Shown: piece after piece, positions 32,901 through 64,000 of the stretch
Layout of the letters: each line of letters starts with the position of its first letter
Numbering within the stretch: the first letter of the stretch is position 1
Origin: Eukaryota sp. GEM-RC1
Lineage: Eukaryota
Length of the DNA: 64,000 nucleotides
Assembly (NCBI GenBank): GCA_040285855.1
Contig: JAUFOQ010000006.1
Coordinates: 1,426,001-1,490,000, forward strand
Reading direction: 5' to 3'
Made by a program: the position numbers and the translations under genes
Notes under the pieces: model-generated
Database searches by the model: none
What the model was told of the DNA's origin: nothing
What the model saw: the letters and a program-made list of their open reading frames with translations, nothing else

Positions 32901-33523
32901 AACTGTTGTATACCAGTACTTCCCAAATCTCCCAAACCAAAGCTCTCGCTTGCTGTTGAATGACACTGTGGATCAGTATAGAGATCGTCCCATCCCTGGA
33001 TATCACAGATTAGAAGGGAGTTGGAGGAGTGGTGGTAAGTGAAGTGAGAGAAGGCTTGGGGAGTGTTACGGGAGTCAGGAGAGTACCAACCGTAGTTGTT
33101 GTTGTGTTTTTGAAAGATTCCGTCAATGTATTTCTCACAGTGGCATAGAGGACGGCCTGGTCGATCACAAAGCTCAAGAACATATGCAGGTAGGAAGGAA
33201 ACAAGTTTGGGAGGATTTAGTTCATTGTAAGCTTCTGCAAAACGTTTGGCTATCATTTGGCATTTAACGTCTTTAAAGAAAAGGTGTCGTGGAGGTGTAG
33301 GACGATCTTTTCTAGGGAATTTTGCCACAAGTAGAGCATCTGAATCAGTCACTGAGAAATCATGAAGTTTATGTGCTGCACGGAGATTACCTTGAGAAAA
33401 CGCTGATGGATCTATTTGGACAATGATAGCAGTATTTACCCATTTATCATTGTCAAGATCATAAGTATATTTGATAGCTCTTTCAGTAAGCTGAAGAGTA
33501 AGGGAAGCTGTGAGGTTTGTCAT
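29995..33523 (-). CDS. Alpha-kinase (eEF2K/MHCK-type) with ankyrin repeats, split by indels near 32030-32120
   Basis: FSQGNLRAAH, KHNNNYG, PQAFSHFTY, ICDIQG, YTDPQ, FGLGDLG and HNCNDIC motifs, followed by ankyrin repeats continuing through ORF 29995..32001. Confidence 0.9.
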
Positions 33524-33571
33524 GCAATTGCGTTCTGGTTCGTCCTCATTTTTTCAAAAACAACCCTTTTG

Positions 33572-35449: not shown

Positions 35450-36300
35450 CGTCAAAAAGTTTCTTTGATTTTCAACAATCCAACTCCTTTCCTTAATTAT
35501 TTTAATGAGTTTATAAGGTTTTTAGGGAATTATATGGGTAACACTACTGAGACCAAGAAATTGATGATGGTAAACAAGTGTCTTTTGTAATGTTACAGAC
35601 CTGTTCCGCTGGAAAAATTAATCAGTTTCTTCAAGGTCTTTGTCCTGATGTCTCTTGATTGTTCAAGAAATATTAACAAAACGAGAACAAAATTTAAAGG
35701 TAGTTTAGTAGGCAATAGTGATTCATTATCTGGTCATTGTTTTAGATCACCAGAATTTGGTGGAATTGGATTCTCAAAAGTAAAATATCTACGCGAAGGG
35801 GCCTTTCTAGGATGTCCAAAGAATATTTTAGATGAATTTCGTGCTCGGTTCAAGGATTGTTGGACTGCTGGTGGTAGATTATCTTCCTCAAAATGTTTTT
35901 TGCTTCTTAGCTTGAAGAATTTTATCAAAAATCTTGCTGCCGAAGTATGGTCTTCTTTGTTTCCTGTTTTAGCGAGACAAATCCCAAGACGCTCTATTTT
36001 CTCACTTCCAATGTGTGTACGTAAGTTCCAGAAAAAGTTTATTTATTATCAGTTCAAAAGTTCATTAGCTATCACGACTTTAAAAATCGCATTAGCTTAG
36101 CCAAAATTAACCGTCCCGCCTTTTGTGCTTTTTTTAACGGACATTTCAAGTGCTGTTGTGTCTTCTTAAGTCATTCTCTATCCTCAACGCATTTATTTTA
36201 ATTTGAAGGATCAAACATGGGTAATTAATATGCGTTTGAAATTGGGTCTCCGGCCTAATGGCTTACGTCAACTGTCTAAGTGCATCTGTAGTCTTCGGAG
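35450..36300 (+). mobile_element. Eroded non-LTR (CRE-like) retrotransposon fragment
   Basis: PEFGGIGF (post-RT LPxxxGGLG-like segment) and WVINMRLKLGLRP...CIC parallel the RLE family fragments elsewhere in the window. Confidence 0.6.
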
Positions 36301-41200: not shown

Positions 41201-43641
41201 CGTCATCGATGACGTCACGAGAGCCAATGATTGCTGACCTGGAATACTGAAGAACTAACTGCCAGAAAGAAAAGACTTGAGTTTGAGTTCGTTGAGGAAC
41301 AGAAACCGTGAGGGCTACTGAAGCAATGTTGGGACTGACAAAGATCCCGCGTAGTTGAGAGTTAAAGAGGGCATTAACTGGAGTGGTCGTGGAGATTCCT
41401 GGACAGGGAAATGTGTCGTTGGCGTTGAATTCTGAAAAAGATGAACCAAGATAGAGTCTCCGAACGTGTAACACCAAATGCTCTGCTGTCAATTTGATTG
41501 ATTGAATGACATCATCGCGATTGAGATCAGGAATCCCAAAGATTTCCATGGGTCTCAATAATATTTCACTCAACATCACTTGAAGTCCTAGAGAATTCAC
41601 AGTATATCCTAAATGAGCACTCTCATACAATTGTCTGGTAGCAACTTCAATACCATCAAGAGAAGCAGAAGAAGAAACAAAAGCAACCGTAGCAAGTATC
41701 AAAATCACAATACAAGCAAGAATGATTGATCTAAAGAGCTCAGTGATTGACGACTCTGACGAGGATGACGATGAACTCAACGTTTCACCGAGACTGATAA
41801 ACTTTTTCTTTTTCTTGCTTTTCTTGACACCTTTTTTCTAACTACACTGACAGCGCCTCCACTATCAGAAACAGAATTCCCACGTGACGATTGACCGTCA
41901 TGACAACTTGACCCCACAGTTTCAGTTTCAATCAAATCTAACTTGGTTGTTAACTGGGCTAATAATTCTTCATCATTCAACACATATCGTACAAAATCAA
42001 TATAAACCAACAATATTTCTCTATTTCCATTTCCGCTCAGCAATAACTTTCGGAAACTAGAGTCACACTCTGTTTGAGTTTTGTATATTTTGTGAGTTAA
42101 AAGAGGTAAATGCTGTAGGTTTACATTATCTGAGAGCAAATCAGTTCAAAAAGCCTTTAAATGATCTAAACATGATTGAACATTTGCCTGAGTGTCTGCT
42201 AGTTGCCGTTGAACATGAATACAACTCCCAGCATCTTGAGTTTCACCTGTATTTTGTAACCGCCGAAGATCATCACATTGTTGATATAAATTAAAAATGT
42301 AATATTTCCAACACAAGTTTACATCAATATCTAGATCCTTAATTGCACTTAAAGTGACCATCCCAGCAAGAGCATCTTTAGAATAAACTACCTCAAAATG
42401 AGCTTTTAAACACAGTGCATTGACGTTATTGGGGAAAGAGTCAATTAAGGAATCGAAAAGCTTTCTCCCAAGAGCAATGTAGTTAGGGGTAGCGACTCTT
42501 AAGGTCAAAAGGAAACGTGATAGGAGTTCTGATTGATCGACTGATTTTAATTCGGGGATATGGAGCTTATCAAAGTCGAGATCAGCGTGACTACCTTCCA
42601 AAGCTGGACGATTGAGATCTAATAACTTGAACATGGTCCTTGAATAGAGAAAGTGTTCCAAATGGTAAAACACTGTTCCAAAAACAATCATTAAACCAAT
42701 GAAAATAATTGAAATAATCCAAGATTCTAAATTTAAAGGATAATATTCATCAGAGATTTCTTTCGAAACCCAAGTCAATGCCAATGCCGTCCATGCGCCA
42801 AGCATAGCAGCGACCTGGGAGTTAGTTTGAACAGAAAAGAAGGGATGAGAGAACAGGAACGTCACCAGAGAGATTAGTGCAATGGTGGGGTAAAGAACTT
42901 TGAAGAGAATGGGTAAGTGATCCAGACTGATCATGGAAAAGACAAGAAAGACACGTAACATTGTGAACTTAAAGAGCCATTGTGAATGGGGACGGGAGAA
43001 CTTTGTTCTTGAATAAGGGGAGATGCTGAAGTGAGAAAAGATGTAGATGAGTTTCATGAAGAGGACAAATGCAAGCATCGAGATGAAGAGAATTCTAATA
43101 AGAACGGTAGATTGTGTGTAGCATTGGGAGGATGTAAACGTATTCCACTTGCCCACATCAGAGCAGGTGAGAAACAGTAGACAGTGAATGGTGATGGGAA
43201 GAAAGAGAGGACCAACAACAGCTGTATGAATGATTCTGGTGACCCGAAGCATGAAGTAATTGGGAAACTCTTTGATGACACTGTGTATGCATTGAGCAAC
43301 GCCGAGGAGCAGTAGAACGGTAAGAGAAGAGTATATGATGGACATTGTTCTATTACTTAAGAACCAATAAGATGACTCGGCATAGTACGAAGGGAGTAGT
43401 AATCCGTGTAGAAATGGGCGAGGATCAACTGCTGTGTGAAAAGGTTCAAGAAGAGGGTTAAAGACCAATCCAAATAATTCTGTTGTTAGATGACATCTAC
43501 AATGTACACACGTAAGAATTGCGATAAGAATGCGATGTGGGTAAGAAAAGAGTTTTTCCCAAAAACAGAGGACAGTTTTCTGAAAGTATTGAAGGCATTA
43601 CTTTTGAAGAGGTCTAAGTGTGATTCATGACCAAAAGACAT
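38287..43641 (-). CDS. TmcB-like large multi-pass membrane protein; one 32-nt intron, one in-frame TGA, two frameshifts
   Basis: N-terminal TM cluster, helical region (YIDFVRYVL), ERNYIVNLFLYIPK and the terminal NEEAVTLTLLNNIP...VPLIANYL are typical of TmcB/TmcC-like proteins. ATG at 43641 joins ORF 42146..43468 after intron removal. Confidence 0.72.
43480..43511 (-). other. 32-nt spliceosomal intron
   Basis: GTGTGTACATTGTAGATGTCATCTAACAACAG: GT..AG ends, CTAAC branch point directly before AACAG. Removal deletes a stop and gives QFLQLFGLVFNP. Confidence 0.75.
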
Positions 43642-44184
43642 GAATGACTACCAGAAAGGGTTGACTGAAATTAACGTTGGTTGCCGATTTCACTATACAC
43701 TACATTTGTACTACATGTTAGACTTGGCAATGTTAAATGGATTCTACTTTGACAGTCTACTACATGTAGCTAGAGTAGTTTCAAATGCAAAATTCCACAC
43801 CTACCTTTAAGCATTCTCATTACAGTTTGGCACATTGTGCCACTCATTTACAAGCCACGAGCTAACTTATAAGATTCAAGAATTCTAGGGTACATCTTTC
43901 TATGCCTTATGTGGACAATTTCTTCTGTCATGTCCTGGTTGGTTACATGTCATACATTTACAAGGACTTTTAGGAGGCACAGGTCTTATCTGTCAGGTGA
44001 AATATGTTTAATCAATTGCTGTAAATAAACTGTGAAATATTAATATATTATCAAAAAAACAAATATTTCATTTGTAGAATCAAAATTGAGTACATGAACA
44101 ATGACGTGATTGGAAAGAAGCCATTTAGTGTTTCATAACAACATTAAAACGATGTTCAAAAAACTGAAAAAATTCAAATACTTG

Positions 44185-46508: not shown

Positions 46509-46600
46509 TAGTGTTGCACGAAACGTTTCAGCGTTTCCAACGTTTCCGTTTCAACTCAGAGGAAACGTATCCGAAACGTCAATAAACGTTTCCAAAACTT
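46509..46600 (+). mobile_element. Probable hAT-type terminus with subterminal repeats; partner end not in the window
   Basis: TAGTGTTGCACG followed by clustered GAAACG/CGTTTC motifs, organised like the other hAT ends in the window. Confidence 0.5.
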
Positions 46601-47199
46601 GATGATTATCCTTAATTAAAAAGTGGATTTATGTGCGGAGAAAAACACACAAGAAAACGACAAATAAATGAAGATTATCAAAACAAATTATCAGACGAAC
46701 TACCTTATACCGATACCGAAAAGTAGTTACCACCAAACAACTTGGCCAAGATGGAATCAACATATCTGAACATAGACAAAAATAGAAAAATCAAATTTAC
46801 TCTTCCAGTACGATCTGTTAAGCTTCCTGCCAAATTCTGAACATAAATATTCAAACAAATTTCAAAACTCCTTGCTAGAAGAACCAAAATTTCCGTACAA
46901 AGAAACTGCAAAAGGCTGAAAGACAATATTACAGTATTATGTCTTCGTGAATTCAATGCAGCAATTTCATGTACTGTACATGTACATGTATATTATTATA
47001 AAACAAGATTATTAAAATTTTCACCACTATATTGGAAACTTAACTTGAAAATTTAATCAAATGTTCGTTGCTGCATGAGTCTCATATTGTTCTGAAAATT
47101 TAGTACTAATTAAGTGGTACTAGTAGTCGTATGAATAGTGATTTCACATATAAGAAAGAACTGGGAACTGTGAATTTCATTCCAAATGCATTAGGACAT

Positions 47200-47330
47200 A
47201 ACCCTTCACATTTTCATGATCTCATGAGCAAGCTCGTAAGCAAACTCATGAGCAAAACTCACAGTTTGACAAATAAATGTCCTCATTCGCAAAGTCTTTT
47301 AAGACGAGCTAACTTCATAGATTCAAGATT
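47200..47330 (-). ncRNA. Candidate Fanzor omegaRNA scaffold / element right end
   Basis: Immediately 3' of the Fanzor stop. Contains a 7-bp inverted pair AGCTCGT/ACGAGCT (47231-37, 47304-10), short hairpins GTCTT-AA-AAGAC and GACA..TGTC, and two CTCATGAG palindromes. The position matches known Fanzor loci; boundaries are inferred. Confidence 0.4.
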
Positions 47331-50215
47331 CCTGATCTTTATGGTTTACGTGTGAGTCCTTGGGTACATCTTTCTTAGGCTTATTTGGACAAGTTGCTCT
47401 GTTATGCCCAGGCCGAAAACATATACCACACTTGTTAGGACCTCTGACTTTTGTTAGAGGACGCTTCGCTTTACCCTTACCCTTACTCACAGTCTTTTTC
47501 TTAGGAATCTGATCTGTATTCCCGCCATCCACGACAGGTGTTGTTTGAGATTTTGGTCTCTCGAGGATGGCAGGTCTACCTTGACCTTGAATGGTTCCAT
47601 TTACAATATTGTAAATATTGATAGCAGAATTGAAGTCTCTATTCCAGAGGACATGGCATTTAGCACATTCAACTAAGCCCCATGGTGAGACTTTTTTGCT
47701 CTTCAATCTTTCTTTTGATAATGGCAACTGTTTGGTCCATTCATCATCAAAGTTACGCTCCACAATATTGTCTAATTGATTGTGTTCCATAATTTCCTTT
47801 TTTAATTCTTTCTCTTCCTTCTGTAACTTCTTCTTCCAATGAGGATCAGTGACTTTTATCCTTTCAGGATTGGAACAGATACCTTCGTCGTTTCTGGAAA
47901 CACATGCAGAGCAACATTTGCTGGTCTTAAATTCATCAACTAGGAACACTTTAAATCCAAATTTTCTCAATAATTTCCGAATTGAAGCACCTTTTACAGT
48001 CGATGCTTTACCTCTTCTTCGACGAAAAGCAGTGTCGTTCCAGTCTCCATACCCAACAACGACTTCATCTGGGTTTCCAAACTGGAGAGCAAATCTGTGA
48101 AGCATGTTTTTTTCACTTCGTTCCTTTCTTGAATATTGTGTTAAGCGTCTACGTCTAAACCACTTTTCTTCGTAAATTCCTTCAGTAGTTCTTTGATCAG
48201 TAGTGGGTGATCGTAATAAAGAACAGGTAATTTCTTTACCAAGCACAAAAGCAGAATACTGAGTCAAATCACAAGATTTACTGCCTGGTGAGTTAGAGCC
48301 CCATTGATCTAAAATTTGTTGCCCATTTATGTCAATGCGACTGCCATCTGGACTGTGGATAAATTGGGTAGAATATTGTTGTAACCGTTCGGATTCAGAT
48401 AAACGGTGGAGATTATATCGTCTTATTTTCTTCTCCAGCTTCCTCTTCTTTCTCTTAGCTCTTTTTCTTTCCTTCCTTGTTTTTATCTTTTCCATGGAGA
48501 CTTGTTCATATCTGCCTTGCGCTCCCCAGCAGTGTATCTGAATACTTTCCAATCATCACGATTTTTCAACTTGACAGTTGATGGTTTGTCAATAGTGGGT
48601 GCGTCTTTCCAATCCTTCAATTCCTTTTTTAATTTTTTCAAGCTTCCTTTTTTCTTTGATGATTTTGGAGAAATCTTTCTTCTTCTGAGATTGGCTGATG
48701 TATCGAAACCTTCGATTTTCTTTTCCTCCTCAGATTTTAAAGAAGCACAATACATCAAATCATGCTGATTAGGATCAATAGCAACAATTCTTTTGGATTT
48801 CAAGTTTAAGTTTTGAATTTCTGTGGAACTCAAAGAATCAATGTACCTTTGAGTAGCTGTGTAGTCAACTGCTTTCACCTTCTTATGAGGATTTCCTCTC
48901 CCATCAAGCAGATCTTTCCGCATCATCATTAAACTACAGCTAACTCCATCTGTAGAAATAGAACTGTATTTGAAGTCATGAGACAATGACTTTGGAAGAC
49001 ACTTTGGTTTCAAAACTGAGTGCCAAATATCTTTTCGAACGTCATCAAAGCTACCTTTAATTTCTGATGCATAAACTTCTTTAAACCATGTAGTATCCAA
49101 TCTGATATGATTAGGAATCAGTGATTTTGTTAGAGGAAAAGGATTATTGGCAGTAACACCAGGACAAGAGTCCTCAACAAGACGTTTCAAATACACTGCA
49201 TGACTTAAGAATTTCAAAGGATCTACTTTTTCAGCATAATAGATTGTTTTCTCCATTTTACCTTCAAAAAAAGTAAACAAATAGTTAAAAAATAGTAAAC
49301 TCAGTCTAGAATTGGGATCAGGAAACACTTCAACATCTTGAAAATTAATATTTGAAATTTCCCCATTAATGATCAACTGTCTGACTTCATTAAGCTTTGT
49401 ACACAACTCTTGTCGTTGATTCTTATCAGTAAGCTTGTTAAGTCTATCTTTTTCAGGGTAACCAAATTAAATACTTGAAAAACATATTCGTGAAAGTGTT
49501 CACTCATGTTTGTCTTGTAATTCGTTATAATTTCAGTAGCCATGTAATGCAATAAACGAGATAAACGATAACTACTGGGAAACACAATTCTATCAAGTCC
49601 AACAGATCGAGCAGCTAGTTCTAAACGAGGAATGTAATGCATCAAGAAATGTTGAGCAAACTGTTTTTGAGTTGAGGCCTCATTTGGTTTAGAAATTATG
49701 TTTGTTAACGATTCTTGTACAGTCCTAATATGATTCTGATTGTTTACAAGTTTGTGGTCCCTAATCGTCATCATAGACAACACTTGTTCCATTGATTTCA
49801 ACGTAAAAAAATTCTTCCAGTATGGCAATTCAATTTTGGCAGTTTGAATTTTAGTCCAAAGGTCAGGTTCAGGTTTAGGTTCATCACTCGCATCTTCAAT
49901 ATTTTCTAATTTAATAGGAGGAGTAGCAGCATCGATAGACTCTGAAGGTACATCTGTTTCTTCATCAGTTGACTCATCTGTATCAGAATTCATTTCTTCC
50001 TTAACAGTTACATTTGGAACAGTAGCAGGCAGTAACTTCTGAATGTATTCTAAAATACCTGAATGGTGAAAATTATGAACAAAAAATGTTTCAAAAAGAG
50101 AGTACTACGGACTCTTACTTGGTGAGCTCTCTTAACACGAGATTCAATAAATTTAACCTTCGCTTTGGATACAACATTGTCTAGTCGTTTCTTAACCACT
50201 TTCATTGGTGACTTT
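47323..50215 (-). CDS. Fanzor1 (eukaryotic TnpB-derived RNA-guided nuclease) moiety
   Basis: Y...EIITNYKTNMSEHF, FPLTKSLIPNHIRLDT, ISTDGVSCS, RuvC-I IVAIDPN, FRYT, VVGYGDW, RuvC-II FLVDEFKTSKCCSAC, zinc finger CAKC and RuvC-III WNRDFNSAINI. Confidence 0.92.
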
Positions 50216-53134
50216 GAACGTAAGGTTTGCTTTTTGGGATCCAATAGGTCAGCCAACAAGTATTCAATCAGAGGTAATTGTTGAATTGAGTTGTTCAACA
50301 ATAGCGGTTTTGTCGATTCCTTGGCCCAAAGTTCATTTACTTTCTCCAAATTTCTTACAAATTTCTTTTTAATCTTATCGACCTTCACTTTGGGATTGTC
50401 TGGAACTAAAACATTAATACTGTCAATTATGCCATGCAAGTTTTGGACATTATTGACTAATTGAACTTCATCAGGATCAGAGTCATGCTTAAGTTCTTCC
50501 AAGCGTTTGACAGTTTCATTTTTAGAAAAATTATTCATTTCAAGAAAAATTTGAACAACATTTTCCAAAAAACGGCCACCAGTAAAGACATAAAAATTCT
50601 TCAATACAGCATTCAAATCGAGACTAAAAAACGGACCAAAAGTTGTTTCCTTACACCATTTGTTGAACCAAAAGGGAATATAGGGTTTAAATTCTGGAAA
50701 AGTAAACGTTGTATTGATTTTGAAGACTTGACAACGTGATACAAGAAAGGGAAATGTATCTAAGTGAAAGTCATAACTCACAAACAATCGCGGACAATGT
50801 TGAGTAATGAAGGAGATGAAGTTTTTAAGCATACTGGATTCACTATCTGAAATATGTAAAGTACACAAATCCAAATTTGTAGTCTCAAAATTGCCATAAG
50901 AAAATAAGTGTTTTTCATTAAACTCATTGTGATCAATGATCTGGATGGAAATTGATACAATCGGATCAACAGAAGAATCACGTTTAACTTCTAATTGATC
51001 TTCAGCTTCACCTTCAACAGTTTCAATGTCATCATCATCTTGAACAAGTTGAACATTATTGCCATTAATTCTTTCTTTTTTGGCAAAATCACTTTGAACA
51101 TGAATTAAACAAAAAGTTGGCAGATTGTTCCAAAGTAAAGGGGAATTAAGAAAGACTTGAACTTGTATTTCTTGTTCGATAGGCTCAGTATGTAGATTTA
51201 CTTCCATTTTATGGATTTCTTCTTGAATTGGCGATGGATACGACATAATGGAGGCCTGTGATTTTGGTGGTAATTCAGATGGTGGTAATTCAGATGGCGA
51301 TGATAGTTCAGATGGTGGTACTTCAGATGATTCCAATGTGGACATACGGCGGTAAGTCTTTCGTATTGGAGTGTCACCAGTTGAAACAAGGGAGCTGATA
51401 GTTCTAAATTGATTTCGTTGAATTAAAGGTGAACCTCGTGGTGATGGAACATCTGAAATTTTGGCTTTACTTTTTTTAGTGCTTAAACCAGTAGATGTTT
51501 TAGTGCTAGCAAGACGTGAACCTGTGAGAGGAATTGAAGTGGTTGGATGTTCTTTACCGGCAGGAGGTTGAATGGGTAACGATGGTACAATAGGAGCTAC
51601 TGTGGTTTGACGTTGTTGTAGATAAAGTGTCCTTTGTTGAGACAATACATCCAGAATTTTTTCACGAAATATGTTTGCTTGAAGTTCAGTGTTCACTTGG
51701 ACCAAATCAGACTCCACATACATCAGAGACGGAACGTACGTGAGTCTTTTAAAAAGTTCAACATATTTTTGAATATACGCAATGACATAAACTCCACAGT
51801 CGTTAGCAGACTGTGTTTTAGTCACAGGCACATAACGGAAAACATACCCCCATGGCACAAGTACTTCGGATAATATGTCTACAGCTGATTTTACCATAGA
51901 CTTACTCATATCGACGGTAGTTAACATTGGATCAATGAAGATCCATTCCTTTTCACAACAGTCTATAATGGCTAAACCCCAATGAGAACCAGTGACACCT
52001 TCTCTGGAATAATTAGCATTTCTAGTCATGGTATCACTAAGGGGAACAAAGAGATATTTGGAGTTTGTGATTTGATTTTTCTCAATTTTCGTCAACAACC
52101 ATTGATCTAGCGGGACATCTGGTGAAACAATGTATTGAAGCCATGTGGTCGGATGGATAAAACTGCTTTCAAAATCTAACCCTGCTTCTTGAAATATCAC
52201 TTTACAGTACTCCACTATCGCTTCGTCATCAAGCCATTGATTAGGATAAACTGAGTTTATGGCTTCTTGAGTTACGGGTCCTGGATTGGATTCAATATCA
52301 CCATCAGCGGTGAGGTCTTTTGGGAACGGAGGATGGGAAGGGATAAACAGGGGAGACGAGTACTTCATGGCAACAAATGTATGTGTTGATAAAACACAGA
52401 ATGAACTGTCCTTATCTAAACTCAACTGAGCCCGAAACCGTGCAATGGAAACAGTCACAAGTTGAGTCAGATAAGAACAGGATGGCGGCATCATCGAAGC
52501 AACGGCAGTGGAGGGAGAAGCAACGGCAGTGGAGGGGAAAGAACTGTCCTTATCTAAACTCAACTGAGCCCGAAACCGTGCAATGGAAACAGTCACAAGT
52601 TGAGTCAGATAAGAACAGGATGGCGGCATCATCGAAGCAACGGCAGTGGAGGGAGAAGCAACGGCAGTGGAGGGGGAAAGAACTGTCCTTATCTAAACTC
52701 AACTGAGCCCGAAACCGTGCAATGGAAACAGTCACAAGTTGAGTCAGATAAGAACAGGATGGCGGCATCATCGAAGCAACGGCAGTGGAGGGAGAAGCAA
52801 CGGCAGTGGAGGGAAAGAACTGTCCTTATCTAAACTCAACTGAGCCCGAAACCGTGCAATGGAAACAGTCACAAGTTGAGTCAGATAAGAACAGGATGGC
52901 GGCATCATCGAAGCAACGGCAGTAGAGGGAGAAGCAACAGCAGTAGAGGGAGAAGCAACGGCAGTCATCACAGCAACGGCAGTAGAGGGAGAAGCAACAG
53001 CAGTAGAGGGGGAAAGAACTGTCCTTATCTGAACTCAACTGAGCCCGAAACCGTGCAATGGAAACAGTCACAAGTTGAGTAAGATAAGGACATGATGGCG
53101 GACAACATCTGTTTGGATGCAGAACAAACGACAT
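47323..53134 (-). CDS. Polyprotein 1 (~1,930 aa after indel repair): repeat leader - 2A - Ulp1/SENP8-like protease - PolB-exonuclease-like domain - Fanzor1 - zinc knuckle
   Basis: ORFs 52826..53134, 50050..52632, 49373..49993, 48483..49406 and 47323..48552 are consecutive, and each break lies at a homopolymer run. 2A, protease, exo-like domain and Fanzor N-terminus lie in a single uninterrupted frame (50050..52632). Confidence 0.75.
52276..52335 (-). other. 2A/StopGo ribosomal skipping peptide 1
   Basis: HPPFPKDLTADGDIESNPG|P matches the D(V/I)ExNPG|P consensus with the usual upstream DL..DG. Confidence 0.9.
52403..53100 (-). repeat. Tandem array of ~138-bp hairpin units (5 copies, the last partial) in the leader of polyprotein 1
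   Basis: Units start (+ strand) at 52403, 52541, 52680, 52817 and 53016. Periods 138/139/137 differ only in a G-run; the 199-bp unit has extra ~21-bp sub-repeats. Confidence 0.95.
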
Positions 53135-53248
53135 TTATACTGTAGGAGGAAGGAAAATGAAATCCCACACAGACTGTAATGGACATGTGTGTGTGAATTC
53201 ACGTGTTAAAAAACGAAATCTGTAATAAAGTCTATATCAGAATTTCCC

Positions 53249-54766
53249 ATGTCCTACTCAATCTTCAAACTCAGAAATACTTCTGAACAAGAAAGTCGTT
53301 CCCGTACCATCAAAACATATATGAAACTTGTTGTAAAGCTTGCTGATAAGCATGCAGTTAACTTGTCAGTTGTTCTTCTTCCTTATGGAACATACAATTC
53401 ATGGAGAACTAAATCCATCCACATAACGGAAGTGTCAACATCTGACTTACCAGATGATCTTAAAAAGGGTACCATGGATTTTTGCCTCAACTACAAATCA
53501 GCCGTTGCCATTGTGCTAGATGTTGATCTAGAAACTGTTCATCTCTTTCCTTTTGATGGTTCTTATGAGAAGCGTGACATATCTCTTCCACTTCCTTCAA
53601 CAACTTTAACTCTAAATCATCTTAAGGATCTACTCAAAGACGTTAAACGAGTTACAATTGCTCGTTCCCCTCCTCCTCCTCAGCCTCAGTCTCCTCCTCT
53701 TTTACATGATTGTGACAATACTCGCTTTGACGATACTCCATCGCAAGTCGTTTTTCCTTCACCAAAACGTCGTATTGATAACTTCGCAATCAATCATATT
53801 CATTCTATTTTCTCTGAACCATCTGAAATAGTTCCTGTTCCAGTCAGTGATAATGCTAATTTATCTAAACCTATGAAACGCAAAAAACAACGTAACCCGT
53901 TGATTCTTTCTGTAGATTTAATCAGTGATCAGTTTTACATAAATTCAAAATTAAAATTTGAATTTAGTGATATTGAGAAAATGTTGACAAAGGATGATAG
54001 GGAAGGTAAAACACAACTCTTGTTGAGTTCTGAACTTGATTTCATTGTGATGCTTGCATTCCAAAAATTTAAATCAAGTAGGTACAAGTTCCTGCAATCT
54101 CAAGAAACTCAACAGTTGGTAGGTGATCCAATATGCTATGCCTTACATTCTGGTAAGGCCATTGTCGATACACTAAAATCAGGAAAACGAATTCTTGCCC
54201 CATTATGTTTGGTGAAAGAACATGTTCCTGGTGATGCAGGATCTGGTCATTGGATTCTTATTGAATTGTTTCTAAATGAAGCAAATGTATTATTATTCAA
54301 TATTTATGATTCTTTGGATTACTCATTAACCACTGAATTAATCGTTAATCCTTTTAGAACTGTTTATGGATGTGGGGAAACAAATCTGTTTGCAAGATTA
54401 CCAGAGTATAAGGTGGACTATTATATACCTTTTGCACAGTCAACATCGTCTCTTATCTGTGGATGGATTGTCTGTTTGAATGTTACTTTAATTTTACAAG
54501 GATTAATGGTTGATGCACGTCAGGAACAAAATCAGACAAAATTATACACTAACAGATCAAGAAAAAATCTATGTCTTGTTATGTATGATCTACTTCAGAG
54601 TGTACAACCTGATTTGGTGACAGAACAAAATGTAATTGATGGTTCAACAACAAAATTTGAAAACAAATCGTCAAAGACAAAAGACGAAAATGAAGTTTTA
54701 GGGAAAAAACAGGAAAACGAAGAATTAAAACCACTGCAAGTGCTTTTGGAATCAAAAATACTTTAA
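53249..54766 (+). CDS. Ulp1/C48-family cysteine protease (second copy)
   Basis: C-terminal GSGHWILIEL...IYDSL...AQSTSSLICGWIVC carries the H-D-Q-C catalytic set; N-terminal half not recognised. Confidence 0.75.
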   Translation: MSYSIFKLRNTSEQESRSRTIKTYMKLVVKLADKHAVNLSVVLLPYGTYNSWRTKSIHITEVSTSDLPDDLKKGTMDFCLNYKSAVAIVLDVDLETVHLFPFDGSYEKRDISLPLPSTTLTLNHLKDLLKDVKRVTIARSPPPPQPQSPPLLHDCDNTRFDDTPSQVVFPSPKRRIDNFAINHIHSIFSEPSEIVPVPVSDNANLSKPMKRKKQRNPLILSVDLISDQFYINSKLKFEFSDIEKMLTKDDREGKTQLLLSSELDFIVMLAFQKFKSSRYKFLQSQETQQLVGDPICYALHSGKAIVDTLKSGKRILAPLCLVKEHVPGDAGSGHWILIELFLNEANVLLFNIYDSLDYSLTTELIVNPFRTVYGCGETNLFARLPEYKVDYYIPFAQSTSSLICGWIVCLNVTLILQGLMVDARQEQNQTKLYTNRSRKNLCLVMYDLLQSVQPDLVTEQNVIDGSTTKFENKSSKTKDENEVLGKKQENEELKPLQVLLESKIL

Positions 54767-55231
54767 AAAAATGTATTGACAGTGATAGAGAATAAATAGT
54801 ACAATATAGATGTATTTATAATTTTGTATAACAGGTAAGAATAACACAACGCATACACAATAATAATTGTACAATATTACAATGTTCAATTTTGCAGTTT
54901 GAACTGTGTCAGACGTAGTCTGAATACCAATGTTTTGTTACATAGTTATTACTTACAGAACAATCCGTGAATTTCATCCACCTGAAATCTGACAGAAATT
55001 TGTTACAGATTTAGTATGTCAGAAAATGTGACATATTAAACTAGACCAATTTGTTACATATTCAGTGTAGATGTGGTAGCATAGTTTATGTGAAAAATCA
55101 TGGTATAAATTATAAATTTAGACCAGATAAACCCAATCAATCAACTTCTTCGTTGATTGATAAATAAAGAAAAATAGTTATAAAGTATATTGTTCTACAT
55201 AATAAAAAAACATCAATGAATTATTGAAAGA

Positions 55232-58200
55232 CTATATAAAATCAAGTGCTTGCAATCCTGAGGGTCTAAAGAAGTGTTTTTCCAAATTTTGCTTTTTGTC
55301 TTTTTCACGGATAGAATCGTAAAAGACAACGATTTTTTGATTATGTTCATACAAATTGTAAACATGTCTGGCATCATTTGGCAGATCAAAGATTATACAA
55401 AGATCAGCCTGAACAGAATGGTTAACCGCTAATTGAGTAGTACTGATCAATAAAACAGGATAAGTCTGTTCATCGAATGTTTTCAGACTTGATGTAATCT
55501 TTCGTGGTTTTCCACCCTCTAGTGACACAACTTTAAAAGAAATCTCAGGACGAAGCCTTGAAAGTTTCCTTACTTTGTCAACTGAATCAGTTGTAATTAC
55601 AACTTTTGTAACTCAAATATAGTCAACAAATGCTTCACATTGTTGATTTTTTCATCAAAATTCCATCTAGATGAAAGAAACTGAAGTCTTTTCGTCGTAT
55701 CAATGTCGATGGGATGAGCACTTTCTTCAACAACAGGAATCTCAACTTGTTGAACTTGTTGAGTCGATTGAACAGTTAAAGCATGTAGTTCAAGACTTCG
55801 TTGTTCGTAAATATTTTTGAATCACAATAACGAACATCATGAACTTCTAATGGTACACCAGAAATACCAATCACAGATAATGCTGAAAGCATTAACAGTG
55901 TTCCATCCTTTTCAGAACAATGAAAGAATTTAAATCATTGCAAAAATCGATTTTTAACAGTTGACCTGTTAACTCACCACTTGAACAATCAATAATAAAT
56001 TGAATCTGTTTCTTTGGTAGTTTCAAACCGAAACCAACACAGAACCCAAATTCCGTGATGTACATTATTGTGTCATAATGCTTAACATACACTGCATCTA
56101 TAATTCTGTCATCTTTGTGACAGCAGCAAAGTTCCCATACAGGTTGTTCACCAAGCAGCTCCCTTTCAAACAAATTTAGCTTTCGGATTGTACAAGTGCC
56201 GACAACTAGAACGAAATCGTCATAGCACTTCAAACTTTTGAATTCTTCATCACGATCAATTTCAGACATGTTTAAATCCATTAATGTTGAAAAATCTGAA
56301 CAATCAACACAATTTTTTTCATCTTCCTGCACAAAAATAATCAACAACAGAGTCTTCGTTGCGACAACAAAACAATTTTTGCAGCAGCCATGTCAATACA
56401 TTGAGAATCAAAACTGTCTCTGGCCAACGGCAACGGTAATACTCGTCGAATAGTCTTTTGTTTGTCCATTTTTGGCTTGTATTGAATCATAAATATGGGC
56501 CCTTCAAAAGCAATCAGTATGGCCTGGTAAAGCAATTGATGATGAAGTGCAAACATAGTCAATTGATTGTCAAATGGTTTACACTGTGGTCTATCTTGAT
56601 CAATACTGCGACTGAACCTTCGGAGTTCTTTATCAATGTTGTAGACTACCAATCGTAATGTAACATTCAACACAGGAGTAGGAGTAGGAGTAATAGCAGA
56701 AAAAAATTCTGTATGGAGAGTTTCGACAACGTCGTTGTCTATATTCAACGTTCCAATGGCAATTTTTGATTCAAATGAAAAAACAACATAGAAAGTTCTC
56801 ATTTCTTCACGTGTAAAATTTAAGATTTGAACATTTTGTCCTAAATATTTAGCAGTATGAGAAGAGGCAGTACAATACGACTTAGTCCAAGATGACAAAT
56901 CCAAAGTACTTGTAGCTACTGGTGACTGGGGCAATGCAGTAGTTTCACTAATCATGGGTTCAGGAAGGTCAGCGTTTTCGGGGATCATAGGTTCTTCAAC
57001 CTTGTGTTGGGCTAAGGTAATTTCAGAATATACGACTTCATTAAGTGTAGTACATGATGATGCACATAAAGGACACGCAGGATCAAAGCACATCAACAGG
57101 TCCTGTTCATCATTGACTTGGAAATTTAGTAACTGGAAATGATGTTTCCTTCCATTCACATAATCAACGGTAACTGGTGGACTGTTACTTTTCAGTAAGT
57201 TGAAATCAAGAATAATAATGTTGTCATACCATGATTTCAACACAGTTATGGGAACCTCACCTTGTTCCGTTAAATATACCAAAATACGTAATCGATTGAT
57301 ACATCCAAAGGTGGATTCGATTGGTAACTCATGATAAGGCCAGTAAACATTCCAGACACGTTTTACCTCAAAAGATCCATGGATATCCAGCTCATTACTG
57401 TATGCAATTAATTGTTTGAACCTCGAATCTTGACAATGCATTGGTGTACCAACCTTGATAGATGGCTTTGCCATTTCCGAAACCAAATTGATATTGAAGT
57501 TCATTAGCCATACGATGAACAAGTATTGACATGAAGAAGGAATATGAGACAAGAATTGTGGAAACTTATCACCAACAGAAATACCATTATGATAACCTAG
57601 ATCTGTAGGTACAGGGAACAGTGATTTGGCACATTTAACTTCCTTGGACCACTCATTATCAATACGAGTGTATTGAGTCAAATCACTACAAGGACTTGAC
57701 ATAATGTCGAAAGTTAATTTAATAGAATTTCTTGGTATAGTCAAATGTACGATATTACCCCACTGTAACAATTGGTTGTACATGTTCCAAAATTCTCGGT
57801 CATTGACAACTTTCAATGCCATTGATAAATTGAATCGTGATTTGATAATGAATCTATGCCAATCAAGATGGAACGTAAGAGAAAAATTTTTTAATGAATC
57901 AAGAGTTCCACGGCACTTGTTGACAAACAGTAGATTTTCAATTTCAGTTGTATTCTCTGAATGCAACATAACAACAGTGCTTTGGGTTTCACCTGGAGCT
58001 AGATCTGAAGTAATTTTAACTTTTAAACATAATGTCTCTGAACGAGTACTTTCATCATCACTGTCATTAACTTTTAGAGATTTGGAAGATTTGACAATAT
58101 TTTGTTCATCAAACAATTTCTTTATAAAGTTGTTAAATTTTTCTCCATTGACATAACCTTCCAACTTCAACCTAACTGAGAATGAATTGTCTACTACAGT

Positions 58201-61200
58201 TGAATGGAATGACTTATTGGGATAAGAAGCCACAATGGCTTGAAAGAGAGACGTCGTTGAATTTGGAGGTTCAAAAGAGAAGAGAAGATTGTTGATTCAT
58301 TTTGAAACTTATTGAGTGTAACTTCAGAAGGATTTGATATGAAATTGACAAGTTTTAGAGCAATGCCTTCCAATCCTTTTAATTGATTATTGAGATGAGC
58401 ATTAGAATCTTCCATATCCACGAAACGTGAAACTAAAGATCTTAGTTCATTTAAATATCGCTCTAGTTTTTTCAGAAAAACTAATTTAGATAAATTCTTA
58501 AGGGCTTGATCATTAAGGGTTTGATCACGTGTTGGGACAATATCCATATTTTTAATAAATTCGCCACAGAAAAAGTAATGAACCAAGGATAATTTGAAAA
58601 ACATGTCTGAACGTACAACTTTAGATTCTTCAATAGTAGAGAGTTGTTTGAGTAAAGGAATCGATTGTGAAAAGGTATACAAATCGTAAAATGACATAAA
58701 AGTTGTTCGAGAGCAACGAATGAACGACATAGAATTGATACCCGCAAGAAGAATCAATCCAGGACACAGGTAATTGTTTGTTAAACAGAAAAATAAAAAC
58801 TTGAAGTTGTAGAATGAAATATTGGCATTGGTGCAAATCTTTCCGAGATAAGTAAGGGGAGAATTTAGTTGGTTTTTTGAAAGAACATTAGTGCGGAAAA
58901 GAACATCAACCGAAGATATGATGTTGTCGCTAGAAGGAACATCAGGCAGTTGACTGATAAAAAATTCAGGGGGATTTGGACGATTACTGATTAAAAATTG
59001 AGGATTTTCAGCAATCTGTTTGATTGTTAACAATGGCTCAATCAACGAACAATTTAGAATTTCTGGTTCGTCGTAATGCAATCTCGAAGTTCCATTCGGA
59101 TATAAGTTTGTCTGCACAAGACGTAACGAAAGTCCAGGAGAATTTCTTCCAGCACGACCAGAGCGCTGGTCCAAAGAAGCAATGGAGCAATGATGAGTGT
59201 CGAGAAGGTCATCTGCATCAGTTTGCTTTGACAAACCACAGTCAATGACAAATTTGACCCCATCAATAGTCAATGAAGATTCTGCTATATTGGTAGCAAT
59301 GACAATTTTAAATTGTTTTCTCGCTGGTTCAGCCACAGCTGCATCTTGTTGGACTGAATCCAGACTTGAATACAACGGATACACACCTGGCTTCTCAGAA
59401 GAAGCTGGGATGTATAGACCACCAGATCCACTTTTTTCTGACTCTCATACTCATTCTCAATAATATTACTGAGAGTTGTAATTTCTGGACTTCCAGGAAG
59501 AAACACGAGCAAAGTAAATCCTGCACATTCTGGTTCAAACTGAAAAAGTTTCTGAGACAGGGAGTAATAACAGAGACATAGTCGGGCTAACGCTCTGAAA
59601 TTGATACTTTTATATGAAAGAGGATTACAGTTTTGAGTGAAATAGTCGTAGTATAAGTTCACATTTAAGACAAAATAAGTGTAAATATCAATAAAATGAT
59701 CATTGAAAACCTGTTGAAGTGTAGGTTCAAAAATCGGAGTTATCACAAGTTTTGATATTAACGGACCATAATGAAATTCATTTTGACGAACAAAATTCAC
59801 ATCAAGGACAATCAGTGGATTGGTTCTTCCAGCTGCATGGATAGTATAGGAGGGTTCGGTATCTAAATAATTTCCTTGTGTAAGGTAATTAAAACAAGGA
59901 TTAGGTTTGTCCATAGTTGCCGAACAGATTACCACTCTCAATTTTGAATCAGTTTGGGAAATTATTCTCATTTGTGCTAATAAAATGTCAATGTCACATT
60001 TTCTTTCATGAACTTCATCCACCATGATAGTTGCAAATCGAGACAGATTGCTATTGTTTGTCAGAAATTTAGAAGTGAAGGCAGCGGTTTGAACTTCGAT
60101 AAATCTTGGAGAATGTACTGGAATGTTCGTATTCTTGTTGCCTGTTCGGTATCCAGACAGAGGAAAATCACTATCACATAAATCATTGATAAAATTGGAG
60201 AGTTTTGTGGCTGGTAGAACTCTAGGTTGACACACAATGATTGGTTTCAAAGTAACCATAACCACAACAACACCAGTTAAGACAGATTTCCCGGAACCTG
60301 TTTGACCAGAAACAATAAACGGAATAATATTGTTGTCTTTGACATGATTTTGACCAACAACACGAAACAATTGATAAAAAGTGTCTTTTCCTTCATTAAC
60401 AAATGCAATACGGCAGTTACGTGCTTTTGAAATCAACTGAAAGCAAGAAAACACCAAGTGGAAGTAGGCGTCATTACTGTCAACAGTATGATTCCACTGT
60501 TCATTTAGTGTCAAAATTTCAAGAATTTGTGTTAGTAAATCACTTTCGCGGACATAAGATTTCAAATGTGCTAATTTAGAGCTTACTTTAGGAAAATCAA
60601 TTGATGTAAATGTACACGTTGGTTCCTCTGGTGAAGTCACAGTGCTTGGGAAATTGTAAACATAGCGGGGAGGTCGTCTCCATTGAAGATAATGATCTAA
60701 CAACATCTTGTAATCACTATGATTTGACGCCAACCATGACAATGAGACTAAGTATTCCATTGCCTGGAAACAGAAAGACATTAAAGAGAGATCTTTTTTT
60801 TCTTTTTTTGTTCATAATGGTAATGGGCACAAAATGACAGTTGGAACATGAGCATACTCATAGTTTCAATTTTGTTTTCGAAAAAATCTTGATATACAGT
60901 AAACTGATGTCGGTAAACTTCTTTCCGTTGTACAACTTGTTTAGTTTCAGGGTCTTTAATTTCGACAATGCGGCTTTCTTCATCTGTATCCACAAAAGTA
61001 TAGTGCTCGAGAAAATGACAAAAGTTAAAAAATCTTGAAAGTAATTGAGAAGTGTAGGACGAATCTCTGATATTATTAAAATCATCCCACATAATACTAA
61101 GAGAAGTTTGATTATATAGATCATCAAATCCGTCATCATTTAAAGGATCGTCTGTAGGATCGTCAGTATGTTCAAAATCAGAATCTTTGACATCAACATC

Positions 61201-62808
61201 AGGTTTTTTGGGGGCTTCTTTTTCAATTAATTCAATAACATGAGCAATATCAAAGATTAACATTTTGAGTTTATAACCAGCTTTTGACTTTGCAAACTTT
61301 TCAATAACTTTTTGGTTTTCTTTGTACATTTCCAAAGTAAAATGATTATTCGTACGATCATACACTTGAAGGTTGAGTTTCTTCTCCTCCACAACAAATT
61401 GCAGATGGAGCATTGTTAATAAAATGTCCAGCATAACCTCAGGACGTACCAAAACTTTAGGGTTGATATTTTGATACAAGGATGTGATACTTAATGAAAC
61501 ATCACTAAGTCTAAAAGTTTGGAAGGGACAATCATTATAACTGTGACCAGGAAGAAGGCAGAAGAGACATGGAGCAATAAAAATGCAAAACGATTCACGA
61601 AAAGAAGGTTGTTTTTGAGGACAATGGGGAGGCATCTCATATTTGAATCCAAGAGGCTTAATCGGTAAACTCACAGTAGATTCTCGATTAGGGTCACACA
61701 ATTGCAACCAATATTTATGGAGGGATTCCAACGCTCCATCATAATTGAGCAAGTAATGATTAGCATCTTGTTGACATTCAATCAACTCCGATTCATAGTG
61801 TTTGGCCATGATGTAATTTTCAATTCTCCAATTACTTGGCGTGTCGCCAGGTTTGCAACACTCTTGCATAATTTGGGCCAGGAACGAGCGTCGTGATTCA
61901 TTGTCTGGATTGGGAATGTGATCTGGAGCGAGATCAGTTAAGTTTTCGGATTCATCTATAAAAACATGATTCATACATGAACAAACTTGGAAACCAGGTG
62001 TTCTTCCAGATCTTAGCACTGGATAAGCAAAAGTTTCATGTGGAATACGGCAGTAACGATGCAATATGCCCATGTGGTATTTAGTTCTTTGATTATGTTT
62101 CTTTTGTTTTAGCTGAGTTTCTTCTGTTGGCGGTTCTTCTGTTAGAGTTTCTTCTGTTGGCAATTCTTGTGTTGGCGGTTCTTGTGTTGGCGGTTCTTCT
62201 GTTGGCGGTTCTGGCAGAGATGGAGGAGGCGATGGTGACACAGAAGTTCTTCTGGGTCTCTTTACTTCTGGGGATGGTAAACGATCATGGGGACCTGGAT
62301 TCTGCTCAACGTCTCCATCGATAGAGAGATCACGCTTCCATGATGTGGACGAGAGGATAGAGCACAGAATAAGCGGAGACGACATCGGGAAGCACGTATC
62401 CACACATTTCTTCAACCCACCATCCATATCCCGTGACCGTGCTATGGAAACAGTGTTTGGGTGATGTGATGAAGCAATGGCGGATGTGGACGAGAGGATA
62501 GAGCACAGAATAAGCGGAGACGACATCGGGAAGCACGTATCCACACATTTCTTCAACCCACCATCCATATCCCGTGACCGTGCTATGGAAACAGTTTTTG
62601 GGTGATGTGATGAAGCAATGGCGGATGTGGACGAGAGGATAGAGCACAGAATAAGCGGAGACGACATCGGGAAGCACGTATCCACACATTTCTTCAACCC
62701 ACCATCCATATCCCGTGACCGTGCTATGGAAACAGTGTTTGGGTGATGTGATGAAGCAATGCCGGATGTGGACGAGGCGAGGGGTGTTAGCAGTATAATA
62801 GAAGTCAT
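55232..62808 (-). CDS. Polyprotein 2 (~2,500 aa after indel repair): repeat leader - 2A - Pro-rich - CCHC knuckle - DEAH helicase - unknown - degenerate RecA-like helicase domain
   Basis: Abutting ORFs 60781..62808, 59285..60781, 58194..59384, 56341..58233, 55892..56347 and 55232..55528 on one strand with little or no intergenic space; joining them into one gene is inferred. Confidence 0.65.
58900..60330 (-). CDS. DEAH/RHA-family RNA helicase core within polyprotein 2
   Basis: Motifs I GQTGSGKS, Ia CQPR, II DEVHER, III SAT, IV LVFLPG, V ATNIAESSLTIDGVKFVIDCG and VI QRSGRAGR; one frameshift at the run near 59431-59437. Confidence 0.92.
62115..62212 (-). repeat. 15-bp coding minisatellite (EEPPT/QEPPT) just after 2A peptide 2
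   Basis: EPPTEEPPTQEPPTQELPTEETLTEEPPTEE. Confidence 0.85.
62290..62340 (-). other. 2A/StopGo ribosomal skipping peptide 2
   Basis: WKRDLSIDGDVEQNPG|P matches the D(V/I)ExNPG|P consensus. Confidence 0.92.
62342..62776 (-). repeat. Tandem array of 141-bp units (3 copies plus 12 nt) in the leader of polyprotein 2
   Basis: Units start (+ strand) at 62342, 62483, 62624 and 62765; copies are nearly identical; 47 codons each, frame preserved. Confidence 0.95.
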
Positions 62809-62958
62809 TGGAGTGGGAAAATTATGGAGCTGTAAACAACTATACTGTACTGATAGAACAAGGAATTCTCATGTCTTCACAACTACATTTACAAGGATCG
62901 CTTTGTGTACACTTTTATTTTCTCTTTGATACATGTAGAACAATTTATTACTATGCGT

Positions 62959-64000
62959 TTATTCTAAATATTGATGTTGATAAAGTAAAACATAGCCATT
63001 TAAAGAAATCTCAGTTAATACTGTCTGTTCGTCTACACCTTTCTTGCAATCACTATTGGTATCATGTAACCACCAAGAACCTTCTTTTTCCTTTGCATAT
63101 GTCACACAGTGACCGTCAGCAAGGGAATCATAATGACAGATCGCAGACAGCAGTCTGTATGTGTATTTTTCTTCAACACTACTTTTGGTCTTGGTTGACA
63201 CTTTGGCGGTTGAGGTTCGACTGGTACTTCATTCCCAATCACTACCTCTAACAAAATGCTGACTCCCACAATTTCTTTCATTTTCATTAGAAATGTCAAA
63301 GACAGACAATTCTTCTGATGTTGGATAATGAGACAATGTGTAAATGTCCTTAAGTGGCAGTTGTGAGTTGATTTCATTGGTAGGGGAAAACTCAATCGAT
63401 TCTGAACCCAATTGTGCTTCAGAAGACAGGAATAGATAGAGTGATAGATTTGAAGAAATAATAACTGGTTGAGGATGTCCAGTCAGTCTAATGATAAGAG
63501 CTTTTGGAAGAGAAGCAAAAGTTTCAGTAATTTCTGATTTTTGTTCAGGACAAGTAGCACAAATTTTTTCTTTTCGAAAAGGTAGATGAGCTTGCAACAA
63601 TGATTCGAGATCGGTTGGTCTAGAAGGATACCGCCTTTGGATACTTTCCTTGTTAATTTCCAAGGCGAAGTGAATGTTAGATGTTGGATCAGTCCCACAC
63701 CAAGAACATTTTGTTGTTGTTTTAATACAGAAACAAAATGCATTAACAGCACAAGAATGCTTTAATTTTTGAGTTATCAACAATTGATCTAAATCTTGCT
63801 GAAGTGATGATTTGACATCTAACTGAGTCTGAACTTTTTTTGGTGATGGTTTCTCATCTAAATCATATCCATAATATTGGAAGTCTGTAGTATCAGTTTC
63901 TTCTGATTCAGACTGTGGTTCAAATTTTTGACAAAAGAGTGTAATTCATCATTTGATGAAGATGGCAAGGTGGTGCGGAATTCCTTGTCAAGTGTTTTTA
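62959..64000 (-). CDS. Ubiquitin-specific protease (USP/C19), C-terminal part; broken by indels and probably starting beyond the window
   Basis: CSWC and CATC zinc pairs, FASLPKALIIRL, His box LSAICHYDSLADGHCVTYAK..GSWWLHD and the terminal GYVLLY box. Cys box not seen. Confidence 0.75.

Follow-up and report, generated by a model that had tools for sequence, protein, structure and literature searches.

The right-hand part (positions 47,200 to 64,000) of a 64,000-nt stretch of Eukaryota sp. GEM-RC1 DNA (contig JAUFOQ010000006.1, positions 1,426,001 to 1,490,000; the whole stretch is referred to as the window) is repeated mobile DNA containing two polyprotein genes, each led by a 2A-like ribosome-skip motif and one ending in a full Fanzor1 domain. 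An earlier reading of this 17-kb block (the original prediction) had taken it for a giant mobile element or endogenous virus and had named a Fanzor, two 2A polyproteins, two Ulp1 proteases, a USP and a DEAH helicase among its genes. We have followed up that reading by analysing the reading frames, ends, copies and relatives of the block.

Architecture of the block

As judged from its frames, the block consists of two long minus-strand open reading frames (ORFs), A and B, interrupted by frameshifts. ORF A (62,808-56,341, minus strand) comprises leader repeats, a 2A motif, an unassigned knuckle domain, a DEAH helicase and an unassigned region, K. ORF B (about 53,134-47,323, minus strand) comprises leader repeats, a 2A motif, an Ulp1 protease, a degenerate family-B DNA polymerase (PolB) exonuclease and the full Fanzor1. 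Across 62,868-56,341 and 52,692-47,323, minus-strand ORFs overlap their neighbours in shifted frames. Of 12 junction pairs inspected in the block and in host genes, 11 are -1 shifts; the twelfth, +1 net, reads as two -1 steps, and the junctions lie mostly at runs of A or T. At six junctions the other copies divide, in frame versus shifted, as 23/7, 15/8, 3/14, 5/1, 1/0 and 1/2; models of the window itself are among those counted as shifted, and predicted introns in gene models can mask shifts. Residues across every one of these six junctions are kept in other copies, and on this ground, together with the single-base size of the shifts, introns were rejected as the cause of the breaks. The frame breaks are likely to be deletions introduced by long-read assembly, with real decay or recoding possible at the third junction, at which most copies are shifted.

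The Fanzor1 domain forms the C-terminal part of ORF B (47,323-50,205, minus strand), is spread over four frames and has the RuvC D-E-D residues, a C4 zinc finger and a C-terminal zinc knuckle. It matches PF07282 (E 8.8e-9) and aligns end to end with 11 stand-alone Fanzor1 proteins, confirming the Fanzor of the original prediction. The Fanzor1 motif, D-X(125,275)-[TS][TS]-C4 zinc finger-RD (PMC3627910), is represented in the window by IDPN, VDEFKTS, CSAC/CAKC and NRD, and the TDG motif of the Fanzor WED domain (PMC10711439) is present as STDGVS at 48.96 kb. Among the copies, the RuvC glutamate is kept in 19/19 models and the final aspartate in 13/13; the first aspartate is found by pattern in 28 of 35 models, the other seven belonging to subfamily 3, aligned members of which read GIDPNE. 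When searched with Foldseek, a model of the exonuclease-Fanzor protein P0153, itself of low confidence (predicted local distance difference test, pLDDT, 41), returned Fanzor structures as its top four matches, including PpFz, GtFz and SpuFz. By its motifs, the domain belongs to Fanzor1 and is predicted to be an RNA-guided nuclease.

Ahead of the Fanzor lies the degenerate PolB exonuclease domain (50,707-51,129, minus strand; PF03104 E 3e-7, and 5e-10 in subfamily 3). Its Exo I and Exo II motifs depart from the canonical forms, and the domain is likely dead. The Ulp1/C48 protease domain (51,751-52,275, minus strand; PF02902 E 6.5e-6) has His, Asp, Gln and Cys in place and is contained with the exonuclease in a single ORF (50,050-52,692); in the copies its His is kept in 18/18 models and QxNDC in 18/19. 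It is preceded by the 2A-like motif DIESNPGP (52,276-52,317, minus strand). The form GD(V/I)ExNPGP occurs in 32 of 164 fetched proteins and is canonical in all 32, no altered GD[VI]E motif being found among the 164, while a 2A motif by itself is insufficient for ribosome skipping (PMC3708506).

On the evidence of shared frames, the Fanzor is a real tail of a 2A-Ulp1-exonuclease polyprotein of roughly 1,800 aa. In the window, the Fanzor N-terminus shares one open frame with the Ulp1 and exonuclease domains. Among relatives, P0020 spans from the 2A motif into the Fanzor, P0079 and P0161 run from the exonuclease to RuvC-I, and P0153, just 28-44% identical, contains the exonuclease and nearly the whole Fanzor in one model; three subfamilies thus retain the fusion of exonuclease and Fanzor, at identities as low as 28-44%. 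The Fanzors found in the literature or fetched here are compact stand-alone proteins of about 600-730 aa, whereas that of the window is fused. No 2A-Ulp1-exonuclease-Fanzor polyprotein is described in the literature searched, the scope of which ends before the survey supplements, where long fused Fanzors could be listed; the three Fanzor papers of 2023 do not use 'fusion' or 'fused' in their main texts, or use them of tags only, and neither Metamonada nor Metamonad appears there. Both canonical 2A motifs of the two polyproteins originally predicted were recovered, but the Fanzor and the DEAH helicase are downstream parts of these polyproteins rather than separate genes. The fusion, which the first reading missed, is the main novelty, and the block is built differently than was read there.

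Both polyprotein genes begin with tandem repeats detected by TRF, five hairpin-forming units of about 139 bp in the 5' leader of B (52,399-53,134, minus strand) and three 141-bp units in that of A (62,342-62,808, minus strand). The units of A and B differ yet share a 25-nt stretch, identical at 22/25 positions (0/2000 shuffles). With up to three mismatches allowed, the window has eight copies of this stretch, all of them in the leaders (five in that of B, three in that of A). This motif forms the tip of a predicted hairpin, with folding z scores of -5.29 in B and -1.92 in A. The loop in B (52,431-52,455, minus strand, and its repeats) has CCATTGCAC, which resembles the U1A-binding loop of U1 small nuclear RNA; the counterpart in A is CCATAGCAC, and the likeness to the U1A loop may be chance. 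Hepatitis delta virus and hammerhead ribozymes did not fit the leaders by eye.

Downstream of its leader, ORF A carries the 2A-like motif DVEQNPGP (62,290-62,334, minus strand), also found in eight models, followed by the N-terminal domain with a CX2CX4HX4C knuckle (60,781-62,289, minus strand), which P0099 and P0105 join to the helicase in one frame. A homologue search with this N-terminal region was empty, the representative of its cluster spanning the helicase only, and its family was not found. The DEAH/RHA RNA helicase (58,275-60,781, minus strand), as originally predicted, matches HrpA/HrpB models and DHX36, DHX29 and Prp-type proteins (E about 1e-26), with Walker A kept in 7/7, DEVH in 9/9 and motif VI in 8/9 models of the copies; a metagenome scan with it returned 14 distant helicases (25-49%) and no element copy. 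Region K (56,341-58,275, minus strand) is in frame with the helicase in P0128; its predicted fold has a pLDDT of 27, and the ESM Atlas gave no usable match for either unassigned domain. ORF A ends in RRLCC (56,341-56,370, minus strand) in 8/8 models reaching that point, the terminal CC of which could presumably act as a prenylation signal. Diverged variants of A also exist (P0129, P0130).

Between A and B, ORF U (53,249-54,766, plus strand; 505 aa) is multi-copy and lies head-to-head with B. It has H, D, Q and C in an Ulp1-like order, judged by eye only, and searches of Pfam, NCBIfam and PDB, as well as comparisons by hhalign and with an Ulp1 profile built for the purpose, give no support to U being an Ulp1; of the two predicted Ulp1 proteases, the one in B is confirmed and the second lacks profile support. 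In the gap between U and A (54,930-55,220), TTTGTTACA occurs as three repeats and positions 55,137-55,162 form a perfect hairpin of 10 bp (z as low as -4.5); fragmentary ORFs follow (55,232-56,392, minus strand), the last with a lone Helicase_C domain (PF00271 E 2e-5). At the right edge, a USP/UCH-like gene (62,959-63,945, minus strand) has an in-frame TGA, no start codon in view, a His-box match to PF00443 (E 2.5e-8) and matches to USP11/4/15; the USP of the original prediction is confirmed by this His-box, which lies behind the TGA. Gaps between neighbouring genes of the block are 114, 465 and about 150 bp. Pfam, NCBIfam, PHROGs and a 23-sequence profile of viral mariner transposases detected no transposase, Rep, integrase, reverse transcriptase (RT) or capsid in the block, the profile of 23 viral DDE_3 transposases giving nothing against 595 window ORFs (best E 0.22), and Rfam returned zero matches at E up to 1 within 44-64 kb. 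The original prediction that such genes are missing consequently holds for the block, but not for the whole window, which has MULE and hAT transposases outside it.

Copies and the probable right end

Cluster sizes, taken for seven of the ten window proteins looked up in the protein collection, are 16 for U, the members being 95-99% identical, 18, 7 and 26 for Fanzor pieces, 9 for K and 14 for A, whereas the neighbouring host leucine-rich repeat (LRR) gene, used as a control, is a one-member cluster. Among 143 named models, B is found on 12 contigs, U on 9 and A on 8, all of them large, which agrees with the mobile nature originally proposed. All 13 proteins returned for the front of ORF B carry the name Eukaryota sp. 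GEM-RC1. The search that yielded the 11 stand-alone Fanzors, at 25-39% identity, also gave four further GEM-RC1 clusters. Copies were counted for B, U and A as models overlapping one position, each count being a floor: other copies number at least 39 for the exonuclease (at least 21 at 80% identity or more), at least 36 for the mid-Fanzor, at least 14 for U and at least 8-9 for A. Compared with the window, near copies have a median identity of 95.4% in B (n=57), 95.6% in U (n=14) and 95.0% in A (n=21), like values which suggest simultaneous amplification of the parts. ORF B has a mosaic make-up: among 14 models there are six combinations of its four leader types, single or double Ulp1 and two exonuclease types. 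A difference from host genes in codon usage, considered in the original prediction, was observed for GC content at third codon positions (GC3), 0.277 in the block (8 ORFs) and 0.325 in host genes (12; p 0.0015), but not for codon choice, in which the block matches the host model no worse than host genes do.

The Fanzor stop is followed by a conserved 3' non-coding block (47,261-47,334, minus strand) ending in ...AAACTGT at 47,261. The 70 nt past the stop match positions 43,822-43,886 (score 55; 0/5000 shuffles), both sequences ending at the same base, within a short ghost-like remnant (43,822-43,975, minus strand) that has B's zinc-knuckle tail and the 3' block in common with the window's element. 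Position 47,261, 62 nt past the Fanzor stop, is likely the right end. The original prediction would have been undone by single-copy genes with no definable boundary; multi-copy genes and this likely boundary were found instead. The 47,261-47,334 block is also, from its position and conservation, a candidate omegaRNA scaffold. Its folding is unremarkable (z -0.74). SpuFz1 has an omegaRNA region of comparable length, about 80 nt, between stop and inverted repeat, as well as ghost loci (PMC10432273). A second omegaRNA-like block at 46.7 kb was rejected as not significant (E 4.3).

Nature of the element

Relatives of one of the stand-alone Fanzors from outside GEM-RC1 occupy 68 viral loci (L015-L082), 29 of them labelled GVMAG. 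Sixty-four reach the Fanzor C-terminus and 57 have a conserved right end, located 41-62 nt past the stop in 54/57, with a matching terminal inverted repeat (TIR) upstream in 38 of the 57. TA stands at both ends in 35/35 full-length cases, the elements are about 2.4-6.1 kb long, and a DDE_3 ORF lies inside the left TIR (E 2.8e-15 in one representative), a layout equal to the mariner-Fanzor arrangement of PMC3627910, section 7. Members such as L074:3877-8022 and L040:1871-8011 have 26-bp TIRs and a conserved, unassigned 113-aa ORF; the family is widespread on viral contigs and its cargo is swappable, including UvrD helicases, an Eco57I methylase, a RING protein and a NUMOD nuclease. We regard this family as a possible model for the window, not as proof. 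Like the Tc1/mariner (IS630-like) Fanzor1 elements PGv-1, PUl-1 and PUl-4 (PMC3627910), it carries Fanzor1 at the right end, as observed here; further likenesses are the cargo upstream, an end 41-62 nt past the stop and the TA|CA-type terminus of the remnant, which ends TA|CAGT with TA as its flank. These elements, however, measure 2.4-6.1 kb and encode a DDE_3 transposase of their own besides an unfused Fanzor of ~660 aa, whereas in the window the Fanzor is a polyprotein tail, neither a transposase nor a pair of TIRs is seen and the element may exceed 17 kb. Spu-1 of Spizellomyces punctatus, which encodes SpuFz1 (PMC10432273), resembles the window in that its Fanzor1 is present in multiple copies and conserved at the catalytic sites, that it has a short 3' region and ghost-like remnants, and that no transposase lies within it, but differs in being 2.1 kb long with a single unfused ORF and 30-nt inverted repeats.

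We tentatively read the block as the last 17 kb, on the right, of a single large DNA transposon that was amplified recently and the transposase of which would lie beyond the window edge, a reading we hold with a little less than even confidence. It is derived from the same age, similar depth, common leader and tight packing of the parts. Several observations weigh against it. No transposase is seen in the block, and the 11 outside Fanzors (556-731 aa) are only about 21-39% identical to that of the window. The flank of B's terminus is CA and not TA; on a matrix of the viral-family TIRs this terminus ranks 2,493 of 127,952 (top 2%), and an alternative left end, a weak match, occurs at 53,170-53,178. 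Near copies number 21 for B and 7-8 for A, although B is partly deeper since more searches targeted it. By locus tags, U and B are within 8 of each other in 0/14 cases and A and B within 12 in 5/23 versus about 4 expected; this adjacency is void as a linkage test, its control having failed, because pieces of one ORF gave 1 pair within 2 tags versus 2.9 at random. Finally, other copies are known as predicted proteins alone, which makes the ends, target-site duplications and linkage of the proposed element conjectural.

The same depth data raise the possibility, rather less probable in our view, that B alone is a non-autonomous Fanzor1 element of ~5.9 kb, which would span 47,261 to about 53,178 and be mobilised in trans, with A and U belonging to one or two related elements nested or adjacent by chance. 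B outnumbers the other parts and falls into three subfamilies, its size is within the range of the viral relatives (about 2.4-6.1 kb), and there are precedents for mariner elements that are non-autonomous and carry a Fanzor only (PMC3627910, section 7). A near-match to the right terminus, CAGACTG|TA, lies 44 bp upstream of the B leader; the match goes no further, however, and with one mismatch allowed the window has 19 occurrences of this 9-mer pattern. No convincing left TIR was found in 47,300-64,000, nor any good left-end match to B's terminus inside the window, beyond which the left end may lie. U and A are moreover of the same age as B, A has B's leader, and A too has diverged variants.

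The organisation of the leaders and N-termini is reminiscent of retrotransposons. It is conceivable, if quite improbable, that A and B are derivatives of retrotransposons without long terminal repeats (non-LTR), or long interspersed elements (LINEs), which kept the 5' repeats, 2A and Ulp1, had their RT-endonuclease swapped and are copied via RNA by a LINE in trans. Tandem repeats at the 5' end are present in L1, SLACS and CZAR, and LINE pieces of the restriction-like endonuclease (RLE) type, as typed by eye, lie in the window. A canonical 2A near the N-terminus of a long ORF, as in A and B, is typical of L1Tc, Ingi, CR1 and L2 (PMC3708506), an N-terminal Ulp1, as in B, is found in NeSL and Utopia (PMC4640811), and some Fanzor1c are LINE-associated (PMC10530073). 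In contrast to these LINEs, the block has no RT or endonuclease, a PolB exonuclease plus Fanzor, or a DEAH helicase, standing downstream instead. RT plus endonuclease, a shared LINE 3' tail and poly(A) were searched for in the block and none was found; B has no repeat tail, A and B have no 3' sequence in common with the LINE pieces, U is on the opposite strand and Rfam contains no ribozyme match in the leaders.

A viral origin was the other half of the original prediction. Giant viruses have counterparts of the PolB exonuclease, Ulp1, USP, superfamily 2 helicase and Fanzor; the nearest outside Fanzor family found resides on viral contigs, and GC3 is below that of host genes. The block would then belong to a large DNA virus or Polinton-like element that had become endogenous, with structural genes beyond the window, which we consider very unlikely: capsid, packaging ATPase, primase, polymerase core and complete PolB were not found in the 17 kb seen, scans of viral sequences with the Fanzor part, the front of B, U and the leader motif gave no matches, and 0/8 non-Fanzor proteins match the 68 viral loci. 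Codon choice is host-like and the helicase is of the RHA type, nearest to DHX36, DHX29 and Prp proteins. Among the parts searched with, the viral relatives are distant Fanzors only, and on present evidence the block is likely a transposon resembling the Fanzor1 cargo transposons and not a virus. Polintons/Mavericks, Teratorn and Helentrons (PMC6431247) are, like the block, large multi-gene mobile units with proteases and helicases, but the 17 kb seen here is without integrase, protein-primed PolB, capsid, herpes genes or RepHel.

Copy depth declines from the Fanzor end inwards, as would be expected of one-ended transposition of a rolling-circle, Helitron2-like unit from that end. The leaders and the 55,137-55,162 sequence form hairpins, and non-autonomous Fanzor1 families of the Helitron2 type exist (PMC3627910). 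This explanation is nevertheless the least probable we consider, a little behind the viral one, as no HUH Rep and no Pif1 or other SF1 helicase was found in the block. By eye, the right end also departs from the canonical CTRR terminus.

If the block is the right-hand part of one large DNA transposon, the following mode of action may be proposed. The hairpin repeats would serve as promoter or leader of each polyprotein gene, and ribosome skipping at 2A would shed the repeat-encoded peptide, so that the protein of B would begin at the protease. The guide bound by the Fanzor would be an RNA read across the right end (47,334-47,261) into flanking DNA, and the nuclease would cut sites that had lost the element, repair from the sister copy restoring it and giving more copies and shuffled modules. 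Guide-directed cutting of emptied sites with sister-copy repair has already been proposed for Fanzors (PMC10432273) and, we infer, would explain both the amplification burst and the mosaics. The fused Ulp1, together with U and USP if active, might clear SUMO or ubiquitin-like modifiers from the vicinity of the cut, or from proteins that the element encodes, and so counter silencing, with the dead exonuclease acting as a nucleic-acid-binding spacer. These roles of Ulp1, exonuclease and 2A are extrapolated from family knowledge. Jumps to new sites would be made by a DDE transposase, most likely of the Tc1/mariner type as in the nearest Fanzor1 family, with the transposase at the left end, the Fanzor at the right end and cargo between. 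A bolder variant, which we think unlikely, is a giant Fanzor transposon of >17 kb with 2A-led polyproteins, a common hairpin leader, a nuclease that brings a SUMO-type protease to the cut site and a mover unlike known transposases, possibly one of ORF A's unassigned domains.

Maintenance of the fusion across three subfamilies and dozens of young copies points to an RNA-guided nuclease with a tethered deSUMOylase-type domain, and the block joins LINE features (leader repeats, 2A, Ulp1) to the nuclease of a DNA transposon. Many near-identical copies with different flanks would make guide, target-adjacent motif and homing testable in a metamonad. Skoliomonas sp. GEMRC is a free-living anaerobic metamonad with a 33.5-Mb Nanopore assembly corrected with Illumina reads, a repetitive share of 48% versus 4.5% in Barthelona sp. 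PCE (Table 1) and no mention of Fanzor in the main text (PMC11316075). Should GEM-RC1 be this organism, a match suggested by the names, the element may explain part of its repeat load.

The window outside the block

The first 46 kb had been regarded as conventional host genes, a description that proved incomplete, as compact eukaryotic genes are interspersed there with a MULE, a broken hAT, an LTR-type ORF and LINE 3' ends. Host-type genes, named by eye, include a long membrane protein (38,287-43,597), an alpha-kinase-ankyrin protein (29,995-33,553) and an LRR protein (13,946-15,561). All three contain single-base frameshifts, and the membrane-protein gene an in-frame TGA as well, suggesting that gene models of this assembly are likely often split. 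An altered genetic code, raised by the stop-codon listing, was dropped since long host ORFs terminate at all three stops.

A MULE transposase with a SWIM finger (1,885-3,525, plus strand; open frame of 546 aa) is flanked by TAGTC-rich repeats at 1,665-1,751 and 4,063-4,240. An ORF with a zinc knuckle and a retroviral-type aspartyl protease, both weak Pfam matches (7,119-7,715, plus strand), is likely an LTR-element remnant. Seven GAAACG/CGTTTC motifs in 75 bp, preceded by TAGTG, occur at 46,509-46,592, an array that resembles hAT subterminal repeats; its partner end was not found. The hAT transposase itself (about 20,476-22,322, minus strand) is broken by an in-frame TAA, and its 11-nt terminal-type sequence (TAGACTTGGCA) is found again at 43,719. 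The non-LTR retrotransposon 3' pieces are located at 18,829-19,437, 23,616-24,224, 4,768-5,000 and 35,591-36,134, the first two being 93.6% identical. A 150-nt non-coding repeat is present at 46,590-46,744 and 22,876-23,027 (~76% identity), the latter copy stopping 30 nt before a tRNA-His gene (23,058-23,131), beyond which lies a tRNA-Gln gene (23,281-23,352).

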